The notes: generated by a model not told the origin, from the sequence alone. A DNA stretch of 64,000 nucleotides from a virus (IMGVR_UViG_3300038300_000071:32001-96000); one strand, 5' to 3'; shown: positions 3,144 to 56,303, counted from the stretch's first letter. Program-made: numbers and translations.

Positions 3144-4403
3144 ATGAAAATCGGCCTGCTAACCTTTCCTTGTTTGTTTGATAGCTTCTTTGATGGAGAT
3201 GATACGGAATACCATCAAATCTTGGAGCCATCAGTTCTCTATCTTGCGACTAAAAGTCATGACTGTGAATTCATTTATGACAATAAGCCAAAGGAAGGAA
3301 TAGATATCTACATTTGTAGCGTTTATACGAGAGGATATAATGAATTTAGAAGGTTTAGCGAGCTAGTTGGAAGTGATAAAATTATTGCAGGCGGATATCA
3401 TGTGACCGCCATTCCAGACCACTTTGATGGCTATGCTGATAAAATTGTTACTGGATATTGTAGCAATATAGATGAGATAATTGAAAAGCCTAAAGGGTCT
3501 TACAAGGGAGAATTTGGATTCAGCGAGATGAATAGAGATTTGATTGACATGAAAAGAATGAATCAAGTTTATCCTGATATAACTGATGAAGATGTTAAAG
3601 GTTCAATGGTGACATCGGTAGGTTGTCCATATGCATGCGAATTTTGCTCTACTCCAAATATGTCTGGAAGAAGAATGAAAGTTGGAGAGTTTGACTATGT
3701 TCACAGAGAGATTGAAAATCTTCTAGAGAAAGATGTCACAACTGTATTTCTCCGAGATGAGAGCTTTGCAACGCATCCTAAGATTAAAGAGATAGCCAGT
3801 ATTTTAAAAGACAAGTTTAGAGTTCTATACAGCTTTGGAACTTTGGGAGTCATGAGCAAGCGTGAGGATGTTGTAAAGCATCTTGCTGAATGTGGTTGGC
3901 ATAGTTTGAATTTTGGATTGGAGGATATAGGAACGAAGTACAACAAGAATCGCGATGTGATGAATGCTGTGCAAAACTGTCAGAAGTATGGGCTTAAGTA
4001 CAACATGAGCTTCATAGTTAATGATTATGGTAAAGATCAAGATAGCCTGAGGGCTAATTACAATGCTCTTTATGATTCTTTCTGTTCTTATAAGCCAAGC
4101 CAGTTAAATGCAAACTTTATGATGCCATTGCCTGCTACCGGATTGTGGGAGAGATTTGGAGATAGATTTAGCTTGGAAGATTTTGACAAATTTGATTCTA
4201 AGACTCCATTGTTTAATGACGACTTGGTTAGTTGGAACAAGCGCATGTTGGTTGCCGTGCAGTTGAAATATTATTACTCTGATATATATAATAAAGAAGT
4301 GAGAGATTTCAATTGTGGGGATAATTTAAGTAAGAGAATGTTTGAGCTTGAGGATCGCTTTGACCTGAAGGGAATTAGCCACGACAAGCTTTTAGAGCTT
4401 TAG
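3144..4403 (+). CDS. B12-binding-type radical SAM protein
   Basis: CPYACEFC (CxxxCxxC) motif, N-terminal AGGYHVT segment, FLRDESF. Confidence 0.8.
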   Translation: MKIGLLTFPCLFDSFFDGDDTEYHQILEPSVLYLATKSHDCEFIYDNKPKEGIDIYICSVYTRGYNEFRRFSELVGSDKIIAGGYHVTAIPDHFDGYADKIVTGYCSNIDEIIEKPKGSYKGEFGFSEMNRDLIDMKRMNQVYPDITDEDVKGSMVTSVGCPYACEFCSTPNMSGRRMKVGEFDYVHREIENLLEKDVTTVFLRDESFATHPKIKEIASILKDKFRVLYSFGTLGVMSKREDVVKHLAECGWHSLNFGLEDIGTKYNKNRDVMNAVQNCQKYGLKYNMSFIVNDYGKDQDSLRANYNALYDSFCSYKPSQLNANFMMPLPATGLWERFGDRFSLEDFDKFDSKTPLFNDDLVSWNKRMLVAVQLKYYYSDIYNKEVRDFNCGDNLSKRMFELEDRFDLKGISHDKLLEL

Positions 4404-9715: not shown

Positions 9716-10015
9716 GTGAGATGGATTATGGGAATAAGAGAAGAAATTTCTGAGAATTATGATGGCATTGTATTTGCTCTTGGATTTGATAGGGCTTGTA
9801 TTGGGGTTTCCTATAAAGACACTGGACATGTTGCATGTTATGATATTGATATGTGTATCGAAGTTCTGATGGAGGAAGGAATGAGCGATGGAGATGCGAG
9901 GGAATACTTTGAATACAATGTAGTTGGCGCTTATATTGGCAATAGCACTCCAGTATTTATAGAAAGATTTAGTACTGGAATTTTAACGCTTTTGGGAGAA
10001 AAAGAGAATGAATAA
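9716..10015 (+). CDS. conserved phage hypothetical protein
   Basis: EYFEYNVVGAYIG motif typical of a common phage family. Confidence 0.65.
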   Translation: MRWIMGIREEISENYDGIVFALGFDRACIGVSYKDTGHVACYDIDMCIEVLMEEGMSDGDAREYFEYNVVGAYIGNSTPVFIERFSTGILTLLGEKENE

Positions 10016-20513: not shown

Positions 20514-20591
20514 ATGTTTAACAAGATTACAGCGATTGAACCTAAAGGGCCGGAAGCGATTAAGCTTTCAGGGCTAGGTGCGTTGCTGTAG
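20514..20591 (+). CDS. attenuator leader peptide 1 (MFNKITAIEPKGPEAIKLSGLGALL)
   Basis: 25 codons between promoter and terminator; K/I/A/E/P/G codons match the downstream tRNAs. Confidence 0.8.
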   Translation: MFNKITAIEPKGPEAIKLSGLGALL

Positions 20592-20620
20592 TGATTTAAA
20601 AAACATTAGTAACAATCTTT

Positions 20621-24980: not shown

Positions 24981-25043
24981 AGATTAGAGATATTTCTTTT
25001 ATAAAATTCATATTGGTAAATAAATGCTAATATGGAGATTCAA

Positions 25044-25985
25044 ATGGGATATATCAAGAATCCTTCTGATAATGGTCAGTTTTGGAGAGAATCAGCGGCT
25101 AATGACAGCGCTTCTGTTTGGCATGGTTTTGATAGTAAGAATAATGGTAAAGACAAATTTTTCAAATCAGAAACATTGCCAAATAATACAAAGGCTTTAA
25201 GTGAGTCTGGGTCTATTGCTTCTAGTGGTAATAGATTAATTGCTGGGGTTTATGGAGATCAAGCTTCTCTTCCTGCAAGTCTTTGGAATCCTTCTCTGAT
25301 GACATCTGTGGGTTGGTACGATGCTGATGATAGTTCTACAATTACAGAGTCTGCTGGAGCTATTAGCCAATGGGATGATAAGTCTGGGAATGACAATCAT
25401 GCTGTTCAGGGCGTTGGAAGCAAACAGCCAATTTACAATGCAAGTGATCCCGTGTTCGGTGGAAAGCCTTCCATATTGGGCGTTTTGGGTGATTATTTAG
25501 AAACTCCATCTATGTCAATAAATAGAATGTATTTAACTTTATATTTGGACGGTGTGGCAACGGCATGGCCAAATCATAATGCGGTAGTATCAGGGCCTTC
25601 TTTCCGTTTAACGGGTAGAGTTGGTGATGTTCACGTATGGGATGGCCCTAGAGACAATAAGAATTTTGATTTTAATGGAAGTACATTTAGGGATGGAAGT
25701 ACTGTTGATGTTAATTACGATCCAACTGGTTTGCCGATGGCGGGTGACATCTTTAGGATAAACGCTGAAAGCACAAAGACTCAAGTTTGGAGGTTGATGG
25801 GGAATACTCAAACATATACAACTTGGCATGGTGGTTTGGCAGAGGTGATATTTACAGACGGATCAGAGGATTTCAACACACAGCAAAAAATAGAAGGTTA
25901 CCTTGCTTGGAAGTGGGGATTTGTGGACAAGTTTCCAGCTGAGCATCCTTACAAGTCAGCTCCTCCATATATAGATGCTTATTAA
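25044..25985 (+). CDS. variable-core paralog 2
   Basis: Same termini; true start is MGYIK at 25044. Confidence 0.7.
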   Translation: MGYIKNPSDNGQFWRESAANDSASVWHGFDSKNNGKDKFFKSETLPNNTKALSESGSIASSGNRLIAGVYGDQASLPASLWNPSLMTSVGWYDADDSSTITESAGAISQWDDKSGNDNHAVQGVGSKQPIYNASDPVFGGKPSILGVLGDYLETPSMSINRMYLTLYLDGVATAWPNHNAVVSGPSFRLTGRVGDVHVWDGPRDNKNFDFNGSTFRDGSTVDVNYDPTGLPMAGDIFRINAESTKTQVWRLMGNTQTYTTWHGGLAEVIFTDGSEDFNTQQKIEGYLAWKWGFVDKFPAEHPYKSAPPYIDAY

Positions 25986-26054
25986 GATCATTTAAAAATT
26001 ATATTTCTTTTATAAAATTCATGTTAGTAAATAAATGCTAATATGGAGATTTAA

Positions 26055-26996
26055 ATGGGATATATCAAGAATCCTTCTGACAATGGTCAGTCTTGGAGAG
26101 AATCAGCCGCTGATAATTCGGCTATCCGTTGGCATGGTTTCGATAGTAAGAATAATGGTAAAGACAAATTTTTCAAATCAGAAACATTACCAAATGATCC
26201 AGACGCACTTGTTGCTGCTGGAGTCAATGCTTCTAGCGGTGATAGACTATTGGCTGGTGTTTATGGAGATATTCCAAGTGTTAATCTTTGGACTCCTGCT
26301 GGAGTCGTTACAGAACTTTGGCTTGATGCCACCGATGCTTCAACTATTACAGAATTATCTGGATCTGTGAGTCAGTGGGATGATAAGAGTGGTAGCGGTA
26401 ACGACTTCCCTCAGGGAAATGCATCCAGACAACCTATAACGGGAGTAAGAACTCTCAATGGCCTAAATGTTCTCGATTTCGATGGTGGTGATAGCATGCA
26501 AAGAGGGAGTTTGGCGAATGTGGCGAATGACTTCATTATGGTAGGAGTTTGGGATGTAGATTCGGGCGCAACACTGTTTTCAGAAACAGGTTCTCCTCAG
26601 GCTTGGAATGCAACAACTGCTGGTCTCACTACGCAATTGGATGGCACTATGCTTTACTCTGGAGGCACGATAAGCGGAGCAACTGTCGTTTCTTTTGATA
26701 TGAATCCTACGGGCCTTAATGCAGAGGCTTTTGTAAACGGAGAAAGTCAGGCAATACTTGCTCTGACGCAAAGCCTTGGAAATAGTACTGCCCGTATAGC
26801 TGCGAACTTTGTTGGCGGTTCTAATGTAGTTGGAGGAATGGGTGAAATGGTTATCTCCGATGACCGATCAGTAGAAACTCGTCAAAAGATCGAAGGATAC
26901 TTGGCTTGGAAGTGGGGTACGGAATCTGATCTTCCAGTTGGACATCCGTATAAGAACAAACCTCCATATATCACTAGTGGAAGTTTATTAGTTTAA
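26055..26996 (+). CDS. variable-core paralog 3
   Basis: Same conserved termini. Confidence 0.7.
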   Translation: MGYIKNPSDNGQSWRESAADNSAIRWHGFDSKNNGKDKFFKSETLPNDPDALVAAGVNASSGDRLLAGVYGDIPSVNLWTPAGVVTELWLDATDASTITELSGSVSQWDDKSGSGNDFPQGNASRQPITGVRTLNGLNVLDFDGGDSMQRGSLANVANDFIMVGVWDVDSGATLFSETGSPQAWNATTAGLTTQLDGTMLYSGGTISGATVVSFDMNPTGLNAEAFVNGESQAILALTQSLGNSTARIAANFVGGSNVVGGMGEMVISDDRSVETRQKIEGYLAWKWGTESDLPVGHPYKNKPPYITSGSLLV

Positions 26997-27054
26997 AAGG
27001 ATATTTCTTTTATAAAATTCATGTTGGTAAATAAGTGCTAATATGGAGATTTAA

Positions 27055-27996
27055 ATGGGATATATCAAGAATCCTTCTGACAACGGACAGTTTTGGAGAG
27101 AATCAGCGGCCAATGATAGTGCTTCTGTTTGGCACGGTTTTGATAGTAAAAATAATGGTAAAGATAAATTTTTCAAATCAGAAACATTGCCAAATGATCC
27201 AAAATCTTTAATTGCATCTGGAGCTATTGCTTCTAGTGGCGATAGATTTTTAGCTGGTGTTTATGGTGATCTTCCAAAAGTTTCTCTTTGGACTCCTGCA
27301 AAAATAGCCACATCTCTTTGGCTGGATGCCTCTGATCCTGCTACAATAACTGAGTCGGTAGGATCGGTCAGTCAGTGGGATGATAAGTCTGGAAATGGTA
27401 ACAATGTAATACAAGCCTCAGGAGTCAATCAGCCAGAAACTGGAGTAAGAGATATTAATGGATTAAACGTTCTTGATTTTGATGGCTCGGACAGCATGAC
27501 AAGAGGGGCTTTGGCGAGCAGATCTGATGATTTCATTGTGGTTGGCGTTTGGTATGTGGATTTTGTTATTTCAAGTCGCAGGAAGAATACGATGTTCGCA
27601 CAATCTGGGATATCTCAAGATTGGAATATGACAACCTCCGATATAGTCTTGCAGAGTGATGGATCTGATGCTTATTCTGGAGGCGTTTTGGCTGGTGTTA
27701 GTAGTATTATTTCTTATGATGTTAATTTTTCTGGATTGAATACTGAGGCTTTTATTAATGGTTCCAGTGAAGCGAATGTTGTGATGTCTCAGTCAGTAGG
27801 AAATTCCACAACAAATATTGGCATAGGGTTTACCGCTTCGAATTTCAATTTTTTCGGAGGTATGGGAGAGATTATTATCTCTAACGATAGATCTGTATCA
27901 ACTCGTCAAAAAATAGAAGGCTATCTTGCTTGGAAGTGGGATCAAGTTTCCAAGCTTCCTGCTGATCATCCTTATAAGAATGTACCACCCTGTTGA
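27055..27996 (+). CDS. variable-core paralog 4
   Basis: Same conserved termini. Confidence 0.7.
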   Translation: MGYIKNPSDNGQFWRESAANDSASVWHGFDSKNNGKDKFFKSETLPNDPKSLIASGAIASSGDRFLAGVYGDLPKVSLWTPAKIATSLWLDASDPATITESVGSVSQWDDKSGNGNNVIQASGVNQPETGVRDINGLNVLDFDGSDSMTRGALASRSDDFIVVGVWYVDFVISSRRKNTMFAQSGISQDWNMTTSDIVLQSDGSDAYSGGVLAGVSSIISYDVNFSGLNTEAFINGSSEANVVMSQSVGNSTTNIGIGFTASNFNFFGGMGEIIISNDRSVSTRQKIEGYLAWKWDQVSKLPADHPYKNVPPC

Positions 27997-28041
27997 TGGT
28001 GGTTGACTGAATCTTTATAAATACTAACATGGAGTTTTTAA

Positions 28042-28986
28042 ATGGGATATATCAAGAATCCTTCTGACAATGGTCAGTCTTGGAGAGAATCAGCGGCCAA
28101 TGATAGCGCTTCTATCTGGCATGGTTTCGATAGTAAGAATAATGGTAAAGACAAATTCTTTAAATCAGAAACATTGCCCAATGGTACAAAGGCTTTAAGT
28201 GAGTCTGGGTCTATTGCTTCTAGTGGTAATAGATTATTAGCTGGTGTTTATGGTAATCAATCTTCACTTCCTGCAAGCCTTTGGACTCCTAACAATATAA
28301 CTACATCAGCTTGGTTTGATGCTTCTGATGCGTCAACTATCACAGAGTCTGCCAATAAAGTTTCTCAATGGGATGATAAAAGTGGAAATAGCAAACACGC
28401 TGTGCAAGCAACTGGATCTCAACAACCGACCTATAAGCCTACCGATGCTAATATGAATGGGATGGGTAGTATCGGAGTTACAAGTAATACTGGAGCGAAA
28501 GGATTAGAAGTACCATCATTCGGAGCGAAGATTTGCTATACAGTCATTAGAAATGACAACGCCAACTTCTCATCATTCGATGTGCTGCTTGCAGGTGCGC
28601 TTGATAGATACCTTGTTCGTGGTAGTTCAGGAACTCCAGACTTCTATACTATCGGAACTCTTGAGTTCAATGATTTTACATATAAGAATGGTTCCACGGT
28701 AAGCACGGCCTTAAACGTACTTCCAATGCCGACAGCAACGATTTTCAAATTTGAAAGTGCCGCAATAAGAGAGCAGACATGGAGTTTCGGGTTTGGTAAT
28801 CAATGGGCTGGCAATAATAGAACATGGGATGGTGCTTATTCAGAGTTTATATTTACAGATGGAACTGAGGACTTATCTACACAGCAAAAGATCGAAGGAT
28901 ACCTAGCTTGGAAATGGGGAACAGAAGCTTCATTGCCTGTTAGTCATCCTTACAAGTCAGCTCCTCCATATATAGATGCTTATTAA
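28042..28986 (+). CDS. variable-core paralog 5
   Basis: Same conserved termini. Confidence 0.7.
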   Translation: MGYIKNPSDNGQSWRESAANDSASIWHGFDSKNNGKDKFFKSETLPNGTKALSESGSIASSGNRLLAGVYGNQSSLPASLWTPNNITTSAWFDASDASTITESANKVSQWDDKSGNSKHAVQATGSQQPTYKPTDANMNGMGSIGVTSNTGAKGLEVPSFGAKICYTVIRNDNANFSSFDVLLAGALDRYLVRGSSGTPDFYTIGTLEFNDFTYKNGSTVSTALNVLPMPTATIFKFESAAIREQTWSFGFGNQWAGNNRTWDGAYSEFIFTDGTEDLSTQQKIEGYLAWKWGTEASLPVSHPYKSAPPYIDAY

Positions 28987-29044
28987 TAGGATATTTCTTT
29001 TATAACTTTGTATTAGTAAATAAATGCTAACGTGGAGATTTTAA

Positions 29045-30076
29045 ATGGGATATATCAAGAATCCTTCTGACAATGGTCAGTTTTGGAGAGAATCAGCGGC
29101 TAATGATAGCGCTTCTATCTGGCATGGTTTCGATAGTAAGAATAATGGTAAAGACAAATTTTTCAAATCAGAGACATTGCCAAATGATCCAGCCGCACTT
29201 TCTGCCGCTGGAGTTAATGCTTCCAATGGAGATAGATTTTTAGCTGGTGTTTATGGAGATCAGTCTTCACTTCCTGCAAGCCTTTGGAATCCCGCTGAAA
29301 TATCCACTGAAGCTTGGTTCGATGCCAATGATGCTTCAACTATTACAGAATCAGCAGGAGCTGTAAGTCAGTGGGATGACAAGTCTGGCAATGTAAGAAA
29401 TCTTATTAACGCAACTGGCGTTCAACAGCCAATGACTGGAATTAGAACAATAGGCGGTTTAAACGCCCTAGATGCCGACGGGGTTACTCAACACCTATAT
29501 AACATTACAAACTTTGCATTTCCTGCCAGTGGAAACTTTATGGTGTTTGCGGTTGCAGTAGTAGACTCTTGCAGTGACAGAAATCAAGCTATATGGGCTT
29601 GGGATGATGATGTTGATATACAACTTGATAGTGCGCAAAACATTAATGAGTTCAGAGGTCGATTGTTTAACACTGACCCGACAAATCAAAACTTGCTATA
29701 CTCAACTAGCGACCCTGCACCATCTGGCTCAGTTATCGGACTAGACACGATGTGGACTACGGTCATGGACTTCACCGCAACGGAGAGTCACTTATATCGG
29801 AACGGACTTAATAGTGTGCTTAATCCAACAAAACTATATGCTAACAAGGTAACTAGTACTGGATTGCAACAGTTTACTGCGTTTCTAGGTGGATTCCCTA
29901 TTGCGTTTACTCATTTGCTTGATGGCGCAATAGGAGAGTTGCTTATGGTAGAAGGAACTGACACTATTACTCAACAAAAGATGGAAGGCTATCTTGCTTG
30001 GAAGTGGGGACTAGTCGCTAAACTCCCATCTGGTCATCCTTACAAGTCAGCTCCTCCATATATAGATGCTTATTAA
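29045..30076 (+). CDS. variable-core paralog 6
   Basis: Same conserved termini. Confidence 0.7.
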   Translation: MGYIKNPSDNGQFWRESAANDSASIWHGFDSKNNGKDKFFKSETLPNDPAALSAAGVNASNGDRFLAGVYGDQSSLPASLWNPAEISTEAWFDANDASTITESAGAVSQWDDKSGNVRNLINATGVQQPMTGIRTIGGLNALDADGVTQHLYNITNFAFPASGNFMVFAVAVVDSCSDRNQAIWAWDDDVDIQLDSAQNINEFRGRLFNTDPTNQNLLYSTSDPAPSGSVIGLDTMWTTVMDFTATESHLYRNGLNSVLNPTKLYANKVTSTGLQQFTAFLGGFPIAFTHLLDGAIGELLMVEGTDTITQQKMEGYLAWKWGLVAKLPSGHPYKSAPPYIDAY

Positions 30077-31245: not shown

Positions 31246-31320
31246 GTATTCATAGCTTAATGGTAAAGCGCAGTAGCAAATTGTATGAGCAAGATGTTGG
31301 TTCGATTCCAGCTGAATACG
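31246..31320 (+). ncRNA. tRNA-like RNA with aberrant anticodon arm
   Basis: Perfect acceptor, D and T arms; anticodon arm closes only a 5-nt loop. Confidence 0.55.
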
Positions 31321-31339: not shown

Positions 31340-31421
31340 GTCGTCGTATATGTCTAAGGAGGACATCCAGTCTGTAAAACTGGCGCTTTGAGCTCGGTGG
31401 GATCGTTACCCACAGGCGACA
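31340..31421 (+). tRNA. tRNA-Tyr(GTA)
   Basis: ccagt-ct-GTA-aa-actgg, variable arm. Confidence 0.85.
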
Positions 31422-44687: not shown

Positions 44688-46337
44688 GGCCTCGGATTGA
44701 ATTGTCATTGTTTAGAGGATATATTAAGAGTGAATACAAGTGTGCTGAATTAGAATTCGTATGAATAAAACTTTTATTTTATTCCTTTTTATACGGGTGC
44801 TTACTTTTTTAGGATAAAATTAAATATATAATCTATCATTTTAAAAGGATCGGAGGCATACAATGAACTTGCATAGCGCAATTGGTGATCTATGTTCATC
44901 GTGCGAAGAAGTTGGGAGATTATCTCAAGCTATTGATCTTATGTACGCAAAGAACGAAATTGAAGACGTATATTCAAAAGAAGAAGTTTCAAAGAGGGAG
45001 TCGGAAGTCCATGTTAAGATTTGCAGATGTAATAATCTTAGGGTTGAGATTGAAGGTTTCATCAAGGCGGAATTAAAACGAGGCGGGTGAATGCAATCTG
45101 GAAATGTAGTTAGATGTCTGAGGGCCGAGTCAGCAATTGATCCTTATGGCAGTTCTTATGAGAAGACAGGATTAAAGGATGGCGCATATTATTTGGTAAT
45201 ATTGAATTCTAATGAAAAGTTGAAGTTATTTGGAGTTAGAGGATATTTCAAGAAGGATTTATTTGAGCTCAAACATGATGTGGAGTATCATTCTCTTCCT
45301 TGGTTTAAGAAAGATTATTCTAAATGTGGGAATTGGGTTCTTGTTGATGGGATGAATTGGAGGTTTAAATATTCTTCCAACACTTACGGAGGCCCAGATT
45401 ATCCTAAGATAAAGAACGCATTGTTTGTAGACCCTCATTCAGTAGAGAGAGTGTGCGAAAGTTAAGAATTTGAGTTATTGTTCGTATAGTTGTATGTGAG
45501 TATAATTGGAATTGAAGGAATTGATGATGGCGCTTGGTAATGGATTAGACGTGTCTTGCTTTAACTACATTGGAGGGAATTTAACTTCAATGCCTTCGGA
45601 GGTGGAAGTTGCCTACACGAACAAGATAAAAAATTTAAATAAGATGGTATCGGTTTTATCAGAGGAAGTGGATTTGGATAAATTCGATAAAAGTTTCAAA
45701 GGCAATATAGAGGAAGTTTTAGAAGAACGCTACAGAGATAAGATAGAAGGCCATGAGTCTTTAATCAATTTATTGAAGGGTGAGATTTTAGAACATGAGT
45801 CTCTTATTGATAAAATTAAAAGTTTAGGTGGTGTGGCTGGTGGTGAGTTGCTTGAATCTTACAGATTATGCAAGGGCGAATTGGCAGTTGCGCAAAACAT
45901 AAAAGAGAAGGATTTATGATGTCAATATTTAAAGATATAAAGCTATTGGATGCTCTTGAAAGCGGGTGTATAACTTTACAAATGAAAAATTGTTACTCCA
46001 AAGAGGTTGATTTGGTGTGGAATGGAATAGCGAAGCACATATTTACAGATTTTTATTTCCTAGAGGTTGAGATTGCGGACAGCAAAGATCCGGCAGAAGA
46101 AGTTCAGTATTGGAAGGTATTAAATAAAATCTTCGAAGAAGTAATTGAGATAAATACCAGAAAAGATTTAGTAGCAAACATAATTTATGCAGTTTCTTCA
46201 GGTTATGTTCCGGTTGGAGTTCCAAAGTCATTCCTTGATAACATTGTAAAGTCATACAAAAACCACACAAAAGGCATCGATTTATTTAAAAGAAGAGCTA
46301 AGGATAAATAAAAGATTATATTTTTTCAACAAACAGT

Positions 46338-46366
46338 TTGCAAATTAAGAGTTGTTAAAGTATATT
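46338..46366 (+). promoter_or_regulatory. sigma70-type promoter of tRNA operon 4
   Basis: TTGCAA-17 nt-TATATT. Confidence 0.8.
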
Positions 46367-46410
46367 GTTAAATAACGAAAGATTAAAATTTATTTAAGAG
46401 AAGTAGAAAA

Positions 46411-46497
46411 ATGAAAAACTTTACAGAAAACACAACACATCTAGGCCTTGTACTTCATGGTACGTGGTTTATGGGTTGTATTGGGTTTTCTGAATAA
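46411..46497 (+). CDS. attenuator leader peptide 4 (MKNFTENTTHLGLVLHGTWFMGCIGFSE)
   Basis: F/T/H/L(CTN)/G(GGY)/W/M codons match the downstream tRNAs. Confidence 0.85.
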   Translation: MKNFTENTTHLGLVLHGTWFMGCIGFSE

Positions 46498-46523
46498 GTA
46501 TATTTTTACATATATAGTTTTAG

Positions 46524-46557
46524 AAAGCCCTTTGAGAAATCCTCAAAGGGCTTTTTT
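46524..46557 (+). terminator. attenuator terminator 4
   Basis: aaagccctttgag-aaatc-ctcaaagggcttt plus T run. Confidence 0.88.
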
Positions 46558-46563
46558 GTTTTT

Positions 46564-46636
46564 AGGGAAGTAGCATAATTGGTAGTGCAGTGGATTCCAA
46601 ATCCAAAGGTTGTGAGTTCGAGTCTCTCCTTCCCTG
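46564..46636 (+). tRNA. tRNA-Trp(CCA)
   Basis: tt-CCA-aa loop, G73. Confidence 0.93.
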
Positions 46637-46943
46637 CTTAAAGATAAAGGAAAGAAAAAAAATGATTACGATTAAAGATTTTTGCGAGAAGCATGAAATA
46701 GAGAGAAGAGTAGAGAAGTATGGTGATTATAGCGATTTGTATGTGGATATTTGTAAAAGGTATAAATCGGAAGTAGAGGTTTGGTTTGAGATGGGTGCTG
46801 ATGGAAATGATTGCAAGCATATGTTAAGATATTATAAGGAAGGAGATTTGAAGGAATACTTTAAAGAGTTTTATGGTTTTACAGAGGAGATTCCAGAAGG
46901 GATGTTATCTGTAAGTGATAGTGAAGAAGTGGAGTAAAGATAA

Positions 46944-47017
46944 GGCGTGTTAGCTCAGTTCGGTAGAGCGGTTGATTGAAGCCCAACAGGTCACTGGTTC
47001 AAATCCAGTACGCGCCA
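46944..47017 (+). tRNA. tRNA-Phe(GAA)
   Basis: tt-GAA-gc loop, A73. Confidence 0.9.
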
Positions 47018-47019
47018 CT

Positions 47020-47092
47020 TCCAGAGTAGCCTAATTGGTAAGGCGACAGATTGTGACTCTGTTAATTGCGGGTTCGAGTCCCGTCTCTGGAC
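47020..47092 (+). tRNA. tRNA-His(GTG)
   Basis: acaga-tt-GTG-ac-tctgt, C73; no encoded G-1. Confidence 0.9.
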
Positions 47093-47094
47093 TT

Positions 47095-47180
47095 TGGATG
47101 ATGCACGACTGTCTTAAGGCAGTTAGGATAAGGCGCTCCGATATAAAGGAGAGATTCGTTGGTGAAAATCCAGCCATCTA
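47095..47180 (+). ncRNA. degenerate tRNA-like RNA
   Basis: tggatg/catcta stem, three hairpins, 8-nt central loop. Confidence 0.4.
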
Positions 47181-47205
47181 TTTTTTGAAGAAGAAAGAAA
47201 TTTAT

Positions 47206-47278
47206 GCATGTGTAGCTCAGTTGGTAGAGCAATGGATTTGTAACCCATAGGTCAGGAGTTCGAGCCTCCTCTCATGCT
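47206..47278 (+). tRNA. tRNA-Thr(TGT)
   Basis: tt-TGT-aa loop. Confidence 0.9.
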
Positions 47279-47283
47279 TACAT

Positions 47284-47356
47284 AAGTATGTAGCTCAATT
47301 GGTAGAGCATCTGAATCATAATCAGAATGTTGCAGGTTCGAGTCCTGTCATGCTTA
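47284..47356 (+). tRNA. tRNA-Met(CAT), elongator type
   Basis: tctga-at-CAT-aa-tcaga; paired 1:72, no GGG/CCC anticodon stem. Confidence 0.8.
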
Positions 47357-47360
47357 CTAT

Positions 47361-47434
47361 GTCAGTGTAGCTCAATTGGCTAGAGCATCTGGTTGCCAAT
47401 CAGAAGGTTGCAGGTTCGAGTCCTGTCACTGATA
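47361..47434 (+). tRNA. tRNA-Gly(GCC)
   Basis: tctgg-tt-GCC-aa-tcaga. Confidence 0.85.
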
Positions 47435-47483
47435 TTGAAGTTTAGGAAATGTTAAATTAAAATTATTTACATGGGACTTACAG

Positions 47484-47975
47484 ATGCGATCAAAGAAGGG
47501 GTTGACGGCGAAGGATATAACTGCTGGCATATTTAAGCATTTTCATAAGAAGAGCAAGTGGATAATTGAAAGTATCTACTTGCTTTTTGACAGTGAGAGT
47601 GACGTTGTAACGATGTCAAAAGCAGGATATATTACAGAGTATGAGGTAAAAGTTGCGCTGAGTGACTTTAAAAGAGACATGGCAAAGAGGTATAAGATGG
47701 GAAGAGTGTCTAAGAATAAGCATTCTGCGTTATCTAGCGGTAAGACGGGAATAAAGCACTTTTACTTCTGTGGCCCAAAGGATATGATACCTTTAGAGCT
47801 TATACCGAGTCATGCAGGCTTAATGGAATTCTGGAAGCAAGGAGGAAGGGTGAGGTATAGGATTGTAAAGAAAGCTCCTACTCTTGTGAACGCGACTAAG
47901 GCGTCTTTTAAAATGGAGAAGAAAATTATAACTTCTATGAAGTGGAAGTACATGAACAAAGTGATGAAAGAGTAA
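47484..47975 (+). CDS. PD-(D/E)XK nuclease-like protein (MmcB-like)
   Basis: ESDV...EYEVKVALSDFKRD. Confidence 0.65.
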   Translation: MRSKKGLTAKDITAGIFKHFHKKSKWIIESIYLLFDSESDVVTMSKAGYITEYEVKVALSDFKRDMAKRYKMGRVSKNKHSALSSGKTGIKHFYFCGPKDMIPLELIPSHAGLMEFWKQGGRVRYRIVKKAPTLVNATKASFKMEKKIITSMKWKYMNKVMKE

Positions 47976-48074
47976 AAGATGTTGAAGACTAAGAAATAGA
48001 GTGTTAAATTAATATAGTGGAGTTGAAAATTATAGGACTGCCATTATAGTAATTTAGAAATAAGGAAGTTGGCT

Positions 48075-48266
48075 ATGGATTACAATGTAATAGTTTTTAA
48101 AGAGGATGGAGATTTTATTGCAACGTGCAAGGAGATGCCTAGCATTTCGGGAATAGGAGACACAAAGCTGAAGGCAATAGAAGAGTTTCACATTGCAATT
48201 TCTCTTGCAAAAGAGATTATGGATGAGCAGGGAACTCCAATGCCGGAAAGAATTGATGGAGTATAA
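48075..48266 (+). CDS. HicB-like antitoxin (solo)
   Basis: F.ATC.EMP.ISG.GDT..KAIEE...G.PMP pattern. Confidence 0.7.
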   Translation: MDYNVIVFKEDGDFIATCKEMPSISGIGDTKLKAIEEFHIAISLAKEIMDEQGTPMPERIDGV

Positions 48267-48722
48267 GTGGTTTTTTTGTTTTCCTTGTGGTGGGCCGTCC
48301 ATGATTTGCATGGATTGCGATGCTTCAATTTGTACAGGAGGTTGTAGGCATGCTACGGAGTTATTTGAAGTTGAGCCTAAGTTTTGGGATGAAGACGACA
48401 CAAAGGACGTGGGAGATATTACACCTAAGAGAGCGAAAGAGTTGATAGGCGAATGGAATGACTATGGAAGGAAGATGAGGAGTGGTTGTCTTGGAATACT
48501 TGAGAAAAAAGAAATATGAGGTGTAGATTGACATGTTGTTCAGATCTCTTGGAAAGGAAGCACTTTGGTTGGGTTCTTAGTCGATCTTGGGATGTTTATC
48601 GCAAGAGGTGTCTTATAGATTTCGAAACTTTAGATGGTGAAAGTTTTACAGTTCCGATTGAAAATCTTTGTGGAGATTCTCCGAGTGGATTTTTGATTGT
48701 GGGAAATAAAGAAGAAATACAC

Positions 48723-48795
48723 GCCAGTGTAGCTCAGTTGGTAGAGCAGGTCACTTGTAATGATCAGGTCAACGGTTCGAATCCGTTCACTGGCT
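48723..48795 (+). tRNA. tRNA-Thr(TGT)
   Basis: ggtca-ct-TGT-aa-tgatc. Confidence 0.95.
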
Positions 48796-49059
48796 TTAGG
48801 AAAGAAGGAATAGATTAAGTGGTTATAGATGTAGAGATTGATAATTGTTGTGGTGGAGGTCATTGTGGGCCAGTACCCGGATATACTTATGAATGTCCAG
48901 TATGTGAGAAGAGCACGATGTGTAGGACTAGGAATGGACGTGCTCTTGATGTTGATGAAAGTTTAACTTGCTCATTATGCAAGGAAGAAATAACAGTTGT
49001 AGAAGTGTTGAGTGATGGAACATTCGATTTTGATTTTGAATTGTAAGTAAGTTTATTAT

Positions 49060-49169
49060 GCCGGAGTAGCTTAATTGGTTAGAGCATAAGTGAAGCGCAT
49101 CATCGGAGACTAGTTAATCCTTTGTTGCTAGTATCTTAAAGGTTGCAGGTTCAAGTCCTGCCTCCGGCA
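49060..49169 (+). ncRNA. tRNA-like RNA with roughly 40 nt insert replacing the anticodon loop
   Basis: Perfect acceptor, D and T arms; no 7-nt anticodon loop. Confidence 0.65.
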
Positions 49170-49191
49170 CTTTTTAGGTAATAAGTTTTAT

Positions 49192-49294
49192 GCGGGAGCC
49201 TGTTGGTTAGGGCTTAGTGAAGAGTATTTTGATGCACCTGGTTAAATCATAATGCAAGTAGCTTTGTACGGGGGTTCGAATCCCTCCTTCTGCT
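49192..49294 (+). ncRNA. tRNA-like RNA with elongated central stem
   Basis: gcgggag/cttctgc acceptor, gggggTTCGAATccctc T arm. Confidence 0.5.
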
Positions 49295-49350
49295 TTGGTT
49301 TTAAAGTATAGGCGAATTAAATAAGATATTTTGGGAAAGGGTGAAACTGA

Positions 49351-49986
49351 ATGATTAGTCATAAACATAAGTTTATTTTTTCGCATGTTCCCAAGGTTGC
49401 TGGAACATCGATAGAGATTTCTTTAAGGCCATATGATGATTCTGGCTTTAAGTGGGGATTAAGGAATGATGATTTGGGAAATGCGATTGCAAATCATAAG
49501 GATTATTTTGTATTTGGATTTGTTAGAAATCCTTATGACAGGTTGGTATCGGCGTGGAAGATGTCGAAGGTAAATGGAAAGCATGATATGCCATTTAGGG
49601 ATTATGTGACGTGTGTTGGCAAATTCCTATCTCATGATTATGAAACGTTGATAAAGTTGTACAGAAGTAATAAGTGTTGGAAGAATGGATATCCTTTGAC
49701 GATGAAGGATGCGGGATTTTTAGACCCTGTTCATGATAAGTATCATACTGTATATCAGTGGAACTTTACTTATGGTTGTAAGTTTGTAGGAAGGTATGAG
49801 CGTTTGGATGATGATTTTAAATTGGTATGTGAAGTATTAAAGTTGAATGTTGATGATCTTCGGAGGGGAAATAAGTCTGGGGATGGCAGCAATTACAAAG
49901 AGCATTATGATAAAAATTTGCAATCTCAGGTGTATGAAATGTACAAGCAAGATTTCTTAATGTTTGGTTATCAATACAAGCTGTAG
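49351..49986 (+). CDS. sulfotransferase family 2 protein
   Basis: HVPKVAGTS (5'-PSB), FVRNPYDRLVS (3'-PB), D...FGY. Confidence 0.88.
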   Translation: MISHKHKFIFSHVPKVAGTSIEISLRPYDDSGFKWGLRNDDLGNAIANHKDYFVFGFVRNPYDRLVSAWKMSKVNGKHDMPFRDYVTCVGKFLSHDYETLIKLYRSNKCWKNGYPLTMKDAGFLDPVHDKYHTVYQWNFTYGCKFVGRYERLDDDFKLVCEVLKLNVDDLRRGNKSGDGSNYKEHYDKNLQSQVYEMYKQDFLMFGYQYKL

Positions 49987-50216
49987 TTTGTGCTTAGATA
50001 ATTTTTTTATAATTCTCCAGAAATTATAAAAGGAGATTTAAAAAAATGAAATACGAATGTTTTGATTGCAGTTCAATATTTGACATAGATGCATCCAATG
50101 ATGGAAGTTGTCCAAGTTGTGGAAGTTCTAATGCGGCGCGGTATAATAATGACTATGCTAGATATGATGATGAAGATGAAGAGAGTTATAAAGATGAGTA
50201 TGATGACTAAGTTTGA

Positions 50217-50291
50217 ACCTCTGTGGGCAAATTGGCAAAGTCGCTCCGTTTAGGCCGGAGAGTTTTCTGGGTTCGAGTCCCAGCAGAGGTA
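50217..50291 (+). tRNA. tRNA-Leu(TAG), short variable loop
   Basis: ctccg-tt-TAG-gc-cggag, A73. Confidence 0.85.
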
Positions 50292-50565
50292 TTAAGGAAA
50301 CAATAAGAGGGATGGTGCTGTGAGTGATTGGGGCGATAGAGATGATGACGACTGGTTTAAGGATCGTCAAAGGCAAGGATTAAAGGAGGAGTTAAGCAGG
50401 CCGCAAAAGCTTTGCAAATGGCTGTTGGAAAAAACATTTGTCATGGCTTTTATTGCATTTGTGTTATCGTTTGCAGTGGGAAGTTTAATACCGCTGTGTG
50501 TATTTTTTGCAGTAGAGTCGGCTGCTTTGTTTTATTTGTTAGTATTTAATTAATGTAAAGGCGGT

Positions 50566-52648: not shown

Positions 52649-52979
52649 AAAGTACTCTAGGGGGAAATACTCCTAGAAGTGCTGCACTGGGGGGAAGAAC
52701 GACATTTACTGAATACAAATGTCCGATTTGCTCAGAAACAGATGCGTACTACTACATTGTAGATGCCGCAGGGTCGAGAGGTAACTCTTGGCTTTGCGGC
52801 ATTTGTGGTTCTAGGAATTCGCCTTATTTGTCCGATTTGCCATTCGGATGCTTAGCAACAGGCATTAAGAAAGGTGTCTGAGATTATTAGAATTAAATAC
52901 AGGATCATTAATATGCGTAGAAATCTCTATGGTATATGATTATAATTGATTCTTAATCTTAAAAGTTAGGTAAATTAAT

Positions 52980-53759: not shown

Positions 53760-53788
53760 TGGACAATATTAGTTTCATGCGCTATAAT
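53760..53788 (+). promoter_or_regulatory. sigma70-type promoter
   Basis: TGGACA-17 nt-TATAAT upstream of the odd tRNA. Confidence 0.65.
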
Positions 53789-53859: not shown

Positions 53860-53946
53860 GGATATATAGCTCAGCGGCCAGAGCAGAAGGATTCTAACCC
53901 TTTGGTAGTCGAAAGGCAGGCGCAGGTTCGATTCCTGTTATATCCT
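53860..53946 (+). tRNA. tRNA with ATTCTAAC loop: possible amber suppressor (CTA) or 8-nt-loop tRNA, long variable arm
   Basis: ggatata/tatatcc acceptor, D and T arms; gaagg-attctaac-ccttt. Confidence 0.6.
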
Positions 53947-54962: not shown

Positions 54963-56303
54963 TGAAGCATTGGAGAGGCTTTACGGCCTCTCTTTTCTTT
55001 TTAAAGGAGTAAAGATGAAAAAAGAAAATTATGATAAGTTGGTAGAAGAATTTGTCGATCTTGAAGATTTGGTTTATGGTCATATTGAAAGGTATAAGGA
55101 GTTCTATGGCGATGGGTGTTGCCATGTCGGTATGGATTCTTTTGATGAATGTACTGTAGAACTTAGCGGAGTTGAGACATGGAGGTATGGAGGTCGAGAG
55201 GAGCATTTCTTAACTTTAGAAGTTGATGATCTGTTTAGCGAAGAGAGAATGAATGTTAAGCTTAAAAAGAGAAGTGATGAGATTATAAAAGAGAAGAATA
55301 AGAAGAAGAGAGCGGAGCAAAGAAAAAAGAGGGAAAAGATTAAAGCTGCTCGTAAGTTGCTAAAGGATAATAACGAATTATGAATGTAAGAGAGCTGATA
55401 AACGAGTTGAAGGGATGCGATCCTGATGCAATAATTTGCACTGGGGGAAATGAGTCTATAAATTATATAGAGTGTTTACCTTCTTATTATGATGGAAGAC
55501 TTATGCATGTAATGCAGGATGAATGTGGAAACCCTGTTAAGATATCGATGAGGAGTGGTGGATCAAAGGTCAAAATGCATTCGTATGACATTGAGGATGT
55601 TATTTTTGATAATCCAAGAATAGAAGTTGAAACTGGGGATGGCTTTAACTCATCTTTAAGTACTTATGCTGAGTGGAGACAGGAAGGTTTAGATTATGAA
55701 AGAAATGCAAGAAAAAAGTTTTATCATTACGGTTATTTAGAAAAGTATGACGACATGTTGTTTATATGGGATGTGGTAGAATTATGAGGAGAAGAGATAT
55801 GAAGAAGGAATTTATAAAAGTAAAGACGGATGGCTTTGAGAATCTAACAGAGGGTAAGATTTATTCAGTTTTGTCTTGCGATGTGTGGGATATGGCCCTA
55901 GTTTATCTTTTTTTTAATGATGTGGGGAAGTTGGTTCAGCATCATGACTGGGAGGATTATTGGGAAGATAACTTTGAGTTAATTAACGAGGAGATGACAG
56001 ATAGGGAGGTGATGATATTTAACAGTGGAATATCTCACGGACTTTGTATAGCAAAGACAGATGTTGACGAAGAGTATGGAATGAAATGCTTTGAGAGGGG
56101 GAAGAAGAAGCGCAAGAGTCTGAAGGAGAAAAAAGGATATCTTTGGTTGGACGATGGGGTTGAGAAGATAAGGAGTAATTTAAATAGTCTTTACAGTGAG
56201 AAGACAGATCATTTCTATGACAGTGGTGATAAAGATGGTATAGTTTGATTTAGAAGTTGAAAAATAAATAATGACGTGTATTGTAATGTAAGAAAAAATA
56301 TAA

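Follow-up and report, generated by a model that had tools for sequence, protein, structure and literature searches.

Bacteriophage transfer RNA (tRNA) genes are usually treated as constitutive cargo that offsets codon bias or the loss of tRNAs during infection, and to our knowledge the control of their expression is largely unknown. The question of control is raised by a 64,000-nucleotide (nt) stretch of viral DNA, IMGVR_UViG_3300038300_000071:32001-96000 (the window, from whose first letter positions are counted below), in which a short open reading frame (ORF) at 46411-46497, termed leader 4, stands directly before a block of tRNA genes. Does this ORF measure the supply of the tRNAs encoded behind it, and how far does its control extend? 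The window is part of a single 202,452-base-pair (bp) contig of 37% G+C from an uncultured virus. The long ORFs of the contig all lie on the plus strand and it carries terminase, portal and helicase genes, which marks it as the genome of a large phage. The contig encodes 29 tRNAs, all of them inside the window and on the plus strand, which are arranged in four blocks and one additional amber-suppressor tRNA. The fourth block comprises Trp(cca), Phe(gaa), His(gtg), Thr(tgt) in two copies, Met(cat), Gly(gcc) and Leu(tag). Leader 4 is very probably a ribosome-mediated transcription attenuator of the trp type that gates this block. The fuller explanation, in which the attenuator exerts feedback on tRNA supply and the transcription unit most likely runs at least to tRNA-Leu(UAG), is held with less confidence and is favoured nonetheless.

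Attenuators that work through a leader peptide place a promoter, a ribosome-binding stretch and a short ORF with a start codon upstream of the genes they control, with an intrinsic terminator between the ORF and these genes. Each of these parts is found at leader 4, on the plus strand, and their order and geometry can be read directly from the DNA. The promoter (46338-46366), recognized by its sequence pattern, is of the sigma-70 type, with a -35 element TTGCAA, a 17-nt spacer and an extended -10 element GTATATT. The general pattern TTGMMA-N17-GTATAYT occurs four times in the 202-kb genome, once ahead of each of four leaders, and the leader-4 promoter is kept in both of the orthologues described below. 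A purine-rich, Shine-Dalgarno-like stretch at 46396-46403, 7 nt 5′ of the ATG, may serve to bind the ribosome, and an AGAGA-type motif is found ahead of all four leaders and both orthologues. The leader ORF, defined by ORF calling, codon match and folds, has 28 codons and the stop codon TAA, and its sensing codons are approximately 4 to 20 (22). It is separated by a 24-nt spacer from the stem of a terminator (46522-46556), which has a 15-bp G+C-rich stem, a folding energy of -22 kcal/mol and a d'Aubenton-Carafa-type score (d) of +44. The gene for tRNA-Trp(cca), located at 46564-46637 by tRNA search, starts 8 nt 3′ of the terminator stem, which leaves no room for a separate promoter between the two.

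The RNA between the start codon and tRNA-Trp can be divided into four regions. Region 1 (CAGAAAAC, 46424-46431) is the anti-antiterminator arm, and in the full-length minimum-energy fold it forms an 8-bp helix with 46485-46492 that ties up the antiterminator arm. Region 2 (46483-46494), the 5′ arm of the antiterminator, consists of the last four sense codons of the ORF. All 12 of its positions pair with 46519-46530, two of the pairs being G:U, exactly as had been proposed from the sequence in an earlier, sequence-only reading of this DNA. Region 3 (46519-46536) contains this antiterminator 3′ arm, which overlaps the terminator 5′ arm (46522-46536) in the folds. Region 4 (46542-46562), found by terminator scan, is the terminator 3′ arm with its U tract (T6 G T5). 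The antiterminator helix thus overlaps 9 nt of the terminator 5′ arm, and an equally good 12-bp helix was obtained in just 11 of 5000 shuffles of the ORF. Together, the upstream helix, the antiterminator and the terminator give the 1:2, 2:3 and 3:4 layout of the trp attenuator.

The position of the ribosome decides which of these helices is predicted to form. Folds of the nascent RNA were computed with the footprint of a ribosome, set at the A-site codon and 12 nt more, masked out. The antiterminator was kept for every A-site codon up to 20, with an energy of -18.5 kcal/mol at codons 14-20 and more stable folds, antiterminator included, at codons before 14. It was lost with the A site anywhere from codon 21 to the stop. 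Since the stop codon lies 25 nt 5′ of the terminator stem, a terminating ribosome would block region 2 and leave the terminator untouched. In these predicted folds, therefore, the antiterminator excludes the terminator, the 1:2 helix excludes the antiterminator, and stalled and terminating ribosomes are placed as attenuation calls for. Leaders 1-3 show the same footprint-dependent switch in their folds.

A leader peptide of this kind should also be rich in regulatory codons that relate to what the genes under its control produce, and this is the case here. The sequence-only reading had counted 16 cognate codons among the 19 from codon 4 to codon 22, and a recount against the downstream block-4 tRNAs gave the same number. 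Of these 16, 14 match by strict wobble, and the remaining two are CTT codons, which Leu(UAG) can serve only if its U34 reads U. Over the whole ORF, 15 of 27 codons (strict) or 17 of 27 (liberal) are read by block-4 tRNAs, compared to 16% and 20% of codons genome-wide (binomial P = 3e-6 and 1e-6, respectively). The six reading frames of the genome contain 855 ORFs of 20-40 codons, and among these leader 4 ranks second (strict) or first (liberal) for block-4 codons. Codons 6-7 are non-cognate because they form region 1 exactly.

This arrangement is not confined to the fourth block, as a leader and attenuator unit also stands ahead of each of the other three. Leaders 1-3 each rank first among the same 855 small ORFs for the codons of their own block. 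When strict-wobble matches are counted for each leader against blocks 1, 2, 3 and 4 in turn, leader 1 gives 14, 3, 0 and 5, leader 2 gives 2, 17, 2 and 1, leader 3 gives 1, 2, 16 and 2, and leader 4 gives 5, 3, 1 and 15. The table is diagonal, and 27 of the 29 tRNAs have their codons in the nearest upstream leader.

The correspondence extends to synonymous codons. The Gly codons of the leader 4 core are GGC, GGT and GGT, compared to GGG in leader 1, which lies ahead of Gly(tcc). Its Leu codons are CTA, CTT and CTT, compared to TTA in leader 2, which lies ahead of Leu(taa). Genome-wide, GGY makes up 41% of Gly codons and CTN 43% of Leu codons. The codons CTA, CTG and CTT occur three times in the sensing window of leader 4 and are missing from those of the other three leaders. 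Both splits had been pointed out beforehand, and the view of leader 4 as a sensor holds at the level of the isoacceptor, given that these CTN codons are peculiar to leader 4 and that the tRNAs follow the nearest-leader rule.

The following sequence of events would account for these features. Host RNA polymerase would start at the promoter, and a ribosome, we infer, translates the 28-codon ORF while the polymerase nears the terminator. If the ribosome ran smoothly to the stop codon, it would cover region 2, the terminator would form and transcription would stop 8 nt before tRNA-Trp. If it lingered at any of codons 4 to approximately 20, it would cover region 1 and leave region 2 free to pair with the terminator 5′ arm, so that the polymerase would read into the tRNA genes. 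The new tRNAs would speed the decoding of the leader and shut the gate, which amounts to an isoacceptor-resolved negative feedback on tRNA supply. The physiological trigger may be a mismatch in codon usage or a loss of tRNAs during infection. The unit would run through the interleaved small genes, most likely at least to tRNA-Leu(UAG) at 50217-50291.

Orthologues of leader 4 were found through a 91-amino-acid ORF that lies between the Trp and Phe tRNAs, which identified two relatives in public assemblies with 70-73% identity, L095 (JAAHTG010000035.1) and L097 (SDBT01778988.1). The L095 leader (9738-9824) differs from leader 4 at 5 of 87 nt. Three of these changes are synonymous, one is in codon 2, and the last replaces Leu in the core by Phe, so that one sensed residue takes the place of another. 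The L097 leader (203-298) has 31 codons and keeps the first eight, including region 1, while its core is reordered and contains codons for Phe, Thr, His, Met, Leu (CTG, CTT, CTT), Gly (GGC twice) and Trp. Codon composition has thus been kept in L097 and peptide sequence has not, which is predicted by a codon sensor and not by a functional peptide. The L097 terminator contains one two-sided compensated pair, and its predicted fold has all three helices with a longer antiterminator. All 8 pairs of the 1:2 helix are invariant across the three orthologues, and both relatives show the footprint-dependent antiterminator switch in their folds, as leader 4 does.

Relative to L095, no part of the neighbourhood is better conserved than the leader and attenuator, tRNA-Leu(tag) excepted. 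Identity is 94.3% in the leader ORF, 92.8% in the spacer and terminator and 94.7% in tRNA-Leu(tag), compared to 69-88% in the flanking ORFs and 74-83% in the proximal tRNAs (Trp to Gly). In L095, an extra segment of about 120 nt with a G+C-rich hairpin (1075-1200) lies between the promoter and the ORF of leader 3 and is missing from this window; leader 3 and its terminator are otherwise nearly identical between the two. Other routes gave no further orthologues. The conserved leader start, used as a pattern, returned 10 metagenome loci, which were 8 chance matches in unrelated ORFs and the 2 known orthologues, and it had no match in IMG/VR. Searches of IMG/VR through the neighbouring ORFs of 147 and 163 amino acids found no relatives, and a search of cultured-phage DNA gave generic tRNA matches only. 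A route through PhoH in IMG/VR led to 7 loci of about 52% identity with no tRNAs nearby and was dropped.

More distant analogues were reached through the large terminase. They are found at L051:2834-2908, L052:14528-14605 (minus strand) and L087:8584-8712 (minus strand), with codon-match P values of 1e-4 to 6e-6. Their tRNA sets are different, and their leaders differ to match. Two relatives with 51-54% terminase identity have one leader each, in which codons for Ser, Leu, Tyr, Val, Cys, Phe and Asn abound and which precedes exactly the tRNAs for these codons. In one of these, 16 of 16 core codons are cognate, including four different Leu codons for four Leu isoacceptors. In a 381-kb phage with 33% terminase identity, the leader has 42 codons, many of them for Leu, Thr, Phe, Ser, Trp, Tyr and Arg, and the matching array lies downstream.

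Some candidates from this search are not counted as support. The arrays of G012 and G017a have a strong terminator directly before the first tRNA and no convincing codon-matched ORF. In G014, a terminator lies about 90 nt before the first tRNA, and the 50-amino-acid ORF present there seems, by a rough count, unenriched beyond its amino acid composition. The terminase (TerL) relatives G004, G006 and G007 have lone Met tRNAs only. Among giant phages of about 33% terminase identity, some tRNA arrays lie directly 3′ of terminators of -25 to -30 kcal/mol with no codon-matched small ORF. Such terminators are found at 3164-3202 of the joined, reversed stretch of G012 (the reverse complement of L080 and L081) and at 2165-2201 and 6464-6508 of L086, and they could be plain operon ends or a different type of gate.

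How far the unit controlled by leader 4 extends depends on the interval between the terminator and tRNA-Leu(tag). The 91-amino-acid ORF of unknown function (46662-46937), conserved in the orthologues, is followed by the array of Phe(gaa), His(gtg), Thr(tgt), Met(cat) and Gly(gcc) at 46944-47435. Directly after tRNA-Gly lies a lineage-specific insert of about 0.8 kb (47455-48240, bounds approximate), identified by alignment with L095, which lacks it. It contains a nuclease-like ORF (47484-47975; phrog_2776, and a weak MmcB-like match at E = 0.005), a promoter-like site at 48023-48050 (TTGAAA, 16 nt, TATAGT; 10 of 12 positions) and most of a HicB-like ORF (48069-48266; phrog_497, 2.5e-8). A small Cys-rich ORF common to L095 (48256-48519) comes next. 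A second insert relative to L095, of about 0.2 kb (~48520-48716), then precedes the second tRNA-Thr(tgt) (48723-48795, by tRNA search). Further on are two unusual tRNA-like genes (49060-49290), a sulfotransferase-family ORF (49351-49986; PF03567, 4e-17) that is syntenic in L095, a zinc-ribbon-like ORF of 54 amino acids (50046-50210) that ends 6 nt 5′ of tRNA-Leu, and finally tRNA-Leu(tag) itself (50217-50291), the only CUN reader of the phage. All of these genes are co-directional on the plus strand, with gaps of at most 113 nt.

The distance of 3.7 kb that had been given for Leu(tag) is accurate, as its gene begins 3,661 nt past the terminator and 3,806 nt past the ATG of the leader. The earlier reading had named a strong terminator before 50217 as the observation that would speak against a transcript of this length, and two terminator scans found none. 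A consensus scan of 46556-50217 returned only stems of 5-6 bp, several of them within tRNAs, and the d'Aubenton-Carafa-type score gave nothing above zero between 46556 and 52764, whereas the attenuator reaches +44 and the closing terminators of units 1 and 2 reach +10 to +25. Two hairpins come closest in the interval; one, at 47554-47583, has d = -6 and, in its longer version, -17 kcal/mol, and the other, at 49968-50001, is weak, with d = -4. The next positive scores are at 52764, inside an ORF and with a poor T tail, and at 54973, past the suppressor tRNA, so the unit may continue beyond 50291.

The same order is found in L095 (Trp, ORF, Phe, His, Thr, Met, Gly, Thr, sulfotransferase, small ORF, Leu(tag)). 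There, 3.47 kb separate the leader from Leu(tag), and the stretch of more than 10 kb past the attenuator is free of terminators with a positive score. Leaders with distant tRNAs are found elsewhere too. In the present genome, Lys(ttt) and Gln(ttg) lie 2.1 kb and 2.5 kb from their leaders, past protein-coding genes, and units 1 and 2 close at terminators 406 and 9 nt past their last tRNA. In two terminase relatives, the leader contains CTC codons that are read only by Leu(gag), encoded 10.1 and 13.4 kb downstream. In L051, the only two strong terminators in 20 kb bracket all 15 tRNAs, which span 15 kb. The absence of scoring terminators, the synteny with L095 and these precedents make a read-through transcript that reaches Leu(UAG) at 50291 likely, although the statement that the codon split implies such an operon was too strong, given the hairpin and the promoter-like site in the interval.

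Several considerations weigh against the proposed explanation. In the codon count, the two CTT codons are included only if U34 of Leu(UAG) reads U, and three core codons (GAA, AAC and GTA) are non-cognate. The helices are conserved across the three orthologues rather than covarying, with one two-sided change, and covariation and shuffle controls were uninformative. Coupling of transcription and translation in the host is assumed. Within the interval, a hairpin at 47551-47586 of -17 kcal/mol is followed by five T residues, although it lies inside the nuclease-like coding sequence and has d = -6, and the promoter-like site at 48023-48050 could provide a start of its own. Finally, the scans used here are suited to intrinsic terminators and sigma-70-type promoters and cannot predict Rho-dependent termination or phage-specific promoters.

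These features of the interval give rise to the best-surviving alternative, which is nevertheless unlikely. The attenuator might gate only the proximal array, from Trp to Gly(GCC) and thus to about 47435-47590, while the second tRNA-Thr and tRNA-Leu(UAG) would be transcribed from internal promoters, such as the site at 48023-48050 or an unrecognized promoter of the phage, and the CTN codons of the leader would report on the supply of Leu(UAG) without controlling it or would be incidental. The hairpin fits this proposal in that it lies 116 nt past tRNA-Gly and has roughly the stability of the closing terminators of units 1 and 2, but it falls inside a coding sequence whose N terminus is backed by a full-length family match. 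Similarly, the hairpin and the promoter-like site both belong to the insert that is missing from L095, yet the CTN codons and Leu(tag) are both present in L095. The AT-rich DNA here yields promoter-like sites at little more than the chance rate, 46 compared to 34 ± 5.5 expected. A perfect TATAAT in the conserved spacer before the ORF that precedes Leu(tag) also fits the proposal, but it has no usable -35 element. Moreover, a leader in the relatives holds codons for tRNAs 10-13 kb away with no terminator between, and the other three sensing windows of this genome lack CTN codons. A unit that extends to Leu(UAG) is preferred.

Within such a unit, the nuclease-like and HicB-like genes appear to be accessory cargo that was dropped in and may have brought its own signals. 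This makes their co-induction with the tRNAs, which had been suggested for all of the interleaved coding sequences, the weakest part of the earlier reading, as both genes lie in the insert with the promoter-like site. As for the labels given to these genes, HicB-like and sulfotransferase were borne out and nuclease-like only weakly so. No recognizable HicA partner was found for the HicB-like gene, which is of the antitoxin type. The presence of two inserts inside the tRNA block suggests mobile cargo that targets the tRNA region.

The two tRNA-like genes in the interval were detected with the Rfam tRNA model, a weak match resembling transfer-messenger RNA and relaxed ARAGORN settings. With the Rfam model, the first (49060-49169) reaches 51.8 bits; it has a 37-nt insert before a well-formed loop, CTAGTAT, which would give the anticodon AGT. 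In the second (49192-49290), the acceptor and T arm resemble those of a tRNA, and a long insert opens with a GTGAAG motif common to the first. Both are kept in L095 (11900-12150), with paired changes in the T stem.

If the attenuator operates as proposed, a further question is what it senses. The best-supported reading is that it senses tRNA species and not amino acids, because in the four leaders the choice among synonymous codons for Gly, Leu, Ile, Ser and Arg tracks the isoacceptors that are encoded downstream and because leaders change with the tRNA set in relatives. It could instead be a classical starvation sensor that responds to the charging of seven amino acids rather than to tRNA abundance, so that the block would be raised in a starved host. 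Stalling does depend on aminoacyl-tRNA, low charging and low tRNA are inseparable by sequence alone, and the known multivalent leaders (ilv, thr) work by amino acid charging. However, charging of an amino acid would not explain why GGY rather than GGG, CTN rather than TTA and ATA rather than ATT appear where the corresponding isoacceptors lie downstream, or why both Ser and both Arg boxes follow the same rule. The products are tRNAs, which bring no relief of amino acid starvation, and the leaders of relatives vary with their tRNAs, which leaves the starvation sensor quite improbable. It has been established that the pheA leader attenuator is derepressed 6-7 fold on loss of one of two tRNA-Phe genes (PMC3082878), so leader attenuators do respond to tRNA dose.

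The weakest alternative is coincidence. On this account the terminator would merely close the gene that lies upstream (45868-46311), the ORF would escape translation or encode a micropeptide, and leaky read-through or an unseen promoter would supply the tRNAs; the terminator does lie downstream of a same-strand gene and translation of the ORF is itself deduced from sequence, but a dedicated promoter stands between that gene and the ORF, the codon match (P ~1e-6) recurs in four paralogues, two orthologues and three distant analogues, one orthologue keeps composition and not peptide sequence, which argues against a functional peptide, and the antiterminator is rarely equalled by chance, all of which makes this account highly improbable.

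Some neighbouring features of the window deserve mention. Five tandem paralogous ORFs of 313-343 amino acids with no Pfam match (25032-30076) lie directly 5′ of leader 2. An odd tRNA-like gene at 31246-31320 (47 bits with Rfam, missed by default ARAGORN) adjoins tRNA-Tyr(gta) at 31343-31421, which was detected only with relaxed ARAGORN settings, and the terminator that closes unit 2 is 9 nt 3′ of the latter gene. This tRNA-Tyr accounts for the four Tyr codons of leader 2.

The amber-suppressor tRNA (53860-53946) has the anticodon CTA and a long variable arm, lacks a leader ORF and is 94% identical in L095 (18136-18221). It has a promoter-like site of its own at 53760-53788 (TGGACA, 17 nt, TATAAT), and it is the sole tRNA beyond the reach of a sense-codon leader. 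Recoding of TAG was considered as the reason for its presence and rejected, since 40 of the 208 long ORFs end in TAG and coding length grows little if this codon is read as sense. The stop codon of leader 1 is TAG, followed immediately by TGA (20589-20594), and the leader-4 orthologue of L097 ends in TAG with the next in-frame stop four codons later (296-310). A suppressor tRNA made late in infection could lengthen TAG-ending leaders slightly.

A tentative generalization is that large phages run a codon-resolved tRNA homeostat, in which each block would be on only when one of its own isoacceptors limits the ribosome. Such a limit could arise where the codon use of the phage does not fit the tRNA pool of the host, or where tRNAs are cut or depleted by host defences. 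If this is true, the text of each leader is a built-in annotation. It would reveal the distant tRNAs of a unit, such as Leu(UAG) 3.7 kb away here and tRNAs up to 13 kb away in relatives. It would also reveal decoding properties, in that the CAU tRNA of block 4 would be Met, the CAU tRNA of block 3 would be an AUA-reading Ile, and Leu(UAG) would read CUU. The circuit is directly testable, and both transcription units and decoding properties could be deduced from genomes alone. What leader 4 adds is that the list of sensor codons extends to a tRNA several kb away, past protein-coding genes, that this relation is kept in an orthologue and exaggerated in distant relatives, and that accessory genes can be inserted into a gated unit.

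The tRNA clusters of large phages such as T4 and T5 are co-directional arrays in the early region, interleaved with small ORFs and nuclease genes, and the cluster described here has the same form. We know of no leader-peptide gate described for clusters of this type, and a full-text literature search found no paper on leader-peptide control of tRNA genes. The E. coli tRNA-Phe genes pheU and pheV were considered as a precedent for attenuation, which could not be confirmed and is not used, as their transcripts are monocistronic with leaders of 3-4 nt (PMC7049720).

Among attenuators, the T-box resembles leader 4 in that competing terminator and antiterminator structures control transcription by monitoring a specific tRNA. 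However, the T-box recognizes uncharged tRNA by direct binding, for which it uses a specifier codon and the T-box sequence. It contains no translated ORF, and the genes under its control are synthetase and amino acid genes. The T-box model (RF00230) had no match at E ≤ 1 in 46300-50400, nor at the gathering threshold in the window. Other Rfam leader families remained below their gathering thresholds, namely His_leader (RF00514, 26.0 compared to 49 bits), the trpB motif (RF04312, 34.9 compared to 59) and PyrG_leader (RF02371, 28.5 compared to 65), and this likeness is generic, consisting of a hairpin and a terminator.

In architecture, leader 4 resembles E. coli trpL, which has the same 1:2 anti-antiterminator, 2:3 antiterminator and 3:4 terminator and in which region 2 is likewise covered once the ribosome has reached the stop codon. 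The two are unrelated in sequence, and leader 4 would sense many codons instead of two Trp codons, with tRNA as the output. The pheA leader, as studied in pheR mutants, provides the likeness in what is read, as an attenuator that responds to tRNA abundance has been demonstrated experimentally there (PMC3082878). The tRNA effect in pheA is a side effect on an amino acid operon, whereas in leader 4 the tRNA genes are the output, which would close a feedback loop. The multivalent leaders ilvL (of ilvGMEDA) and thrL share with leader 4 a promoter, a short ORF with several kinds of regulatory codon, mutually exclusive hairpins and an intrinsic terminator ahead of the controlled genes, and in them a stall at any regulatory codon leads to read-through. 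They control biosynthetic enzymes, while leader 4 would control tRNA genes. Leader 4 samples about seven tRNA species, mostly one to four times each and not in runs, its synonymous codons fit the encoded isoacceptors, and it is phage-borne and present in four copies with mutually exclusive codon sets. As far as could be found, this would be the first description of ribosome-mediated attenuation of tRNA genes and of an isoacceptor-resolved feedback on tRNA supply. It would be a known mechanism in a new use, on tRNA genes, in phages, with isoacceptor resolution and feedback logic.

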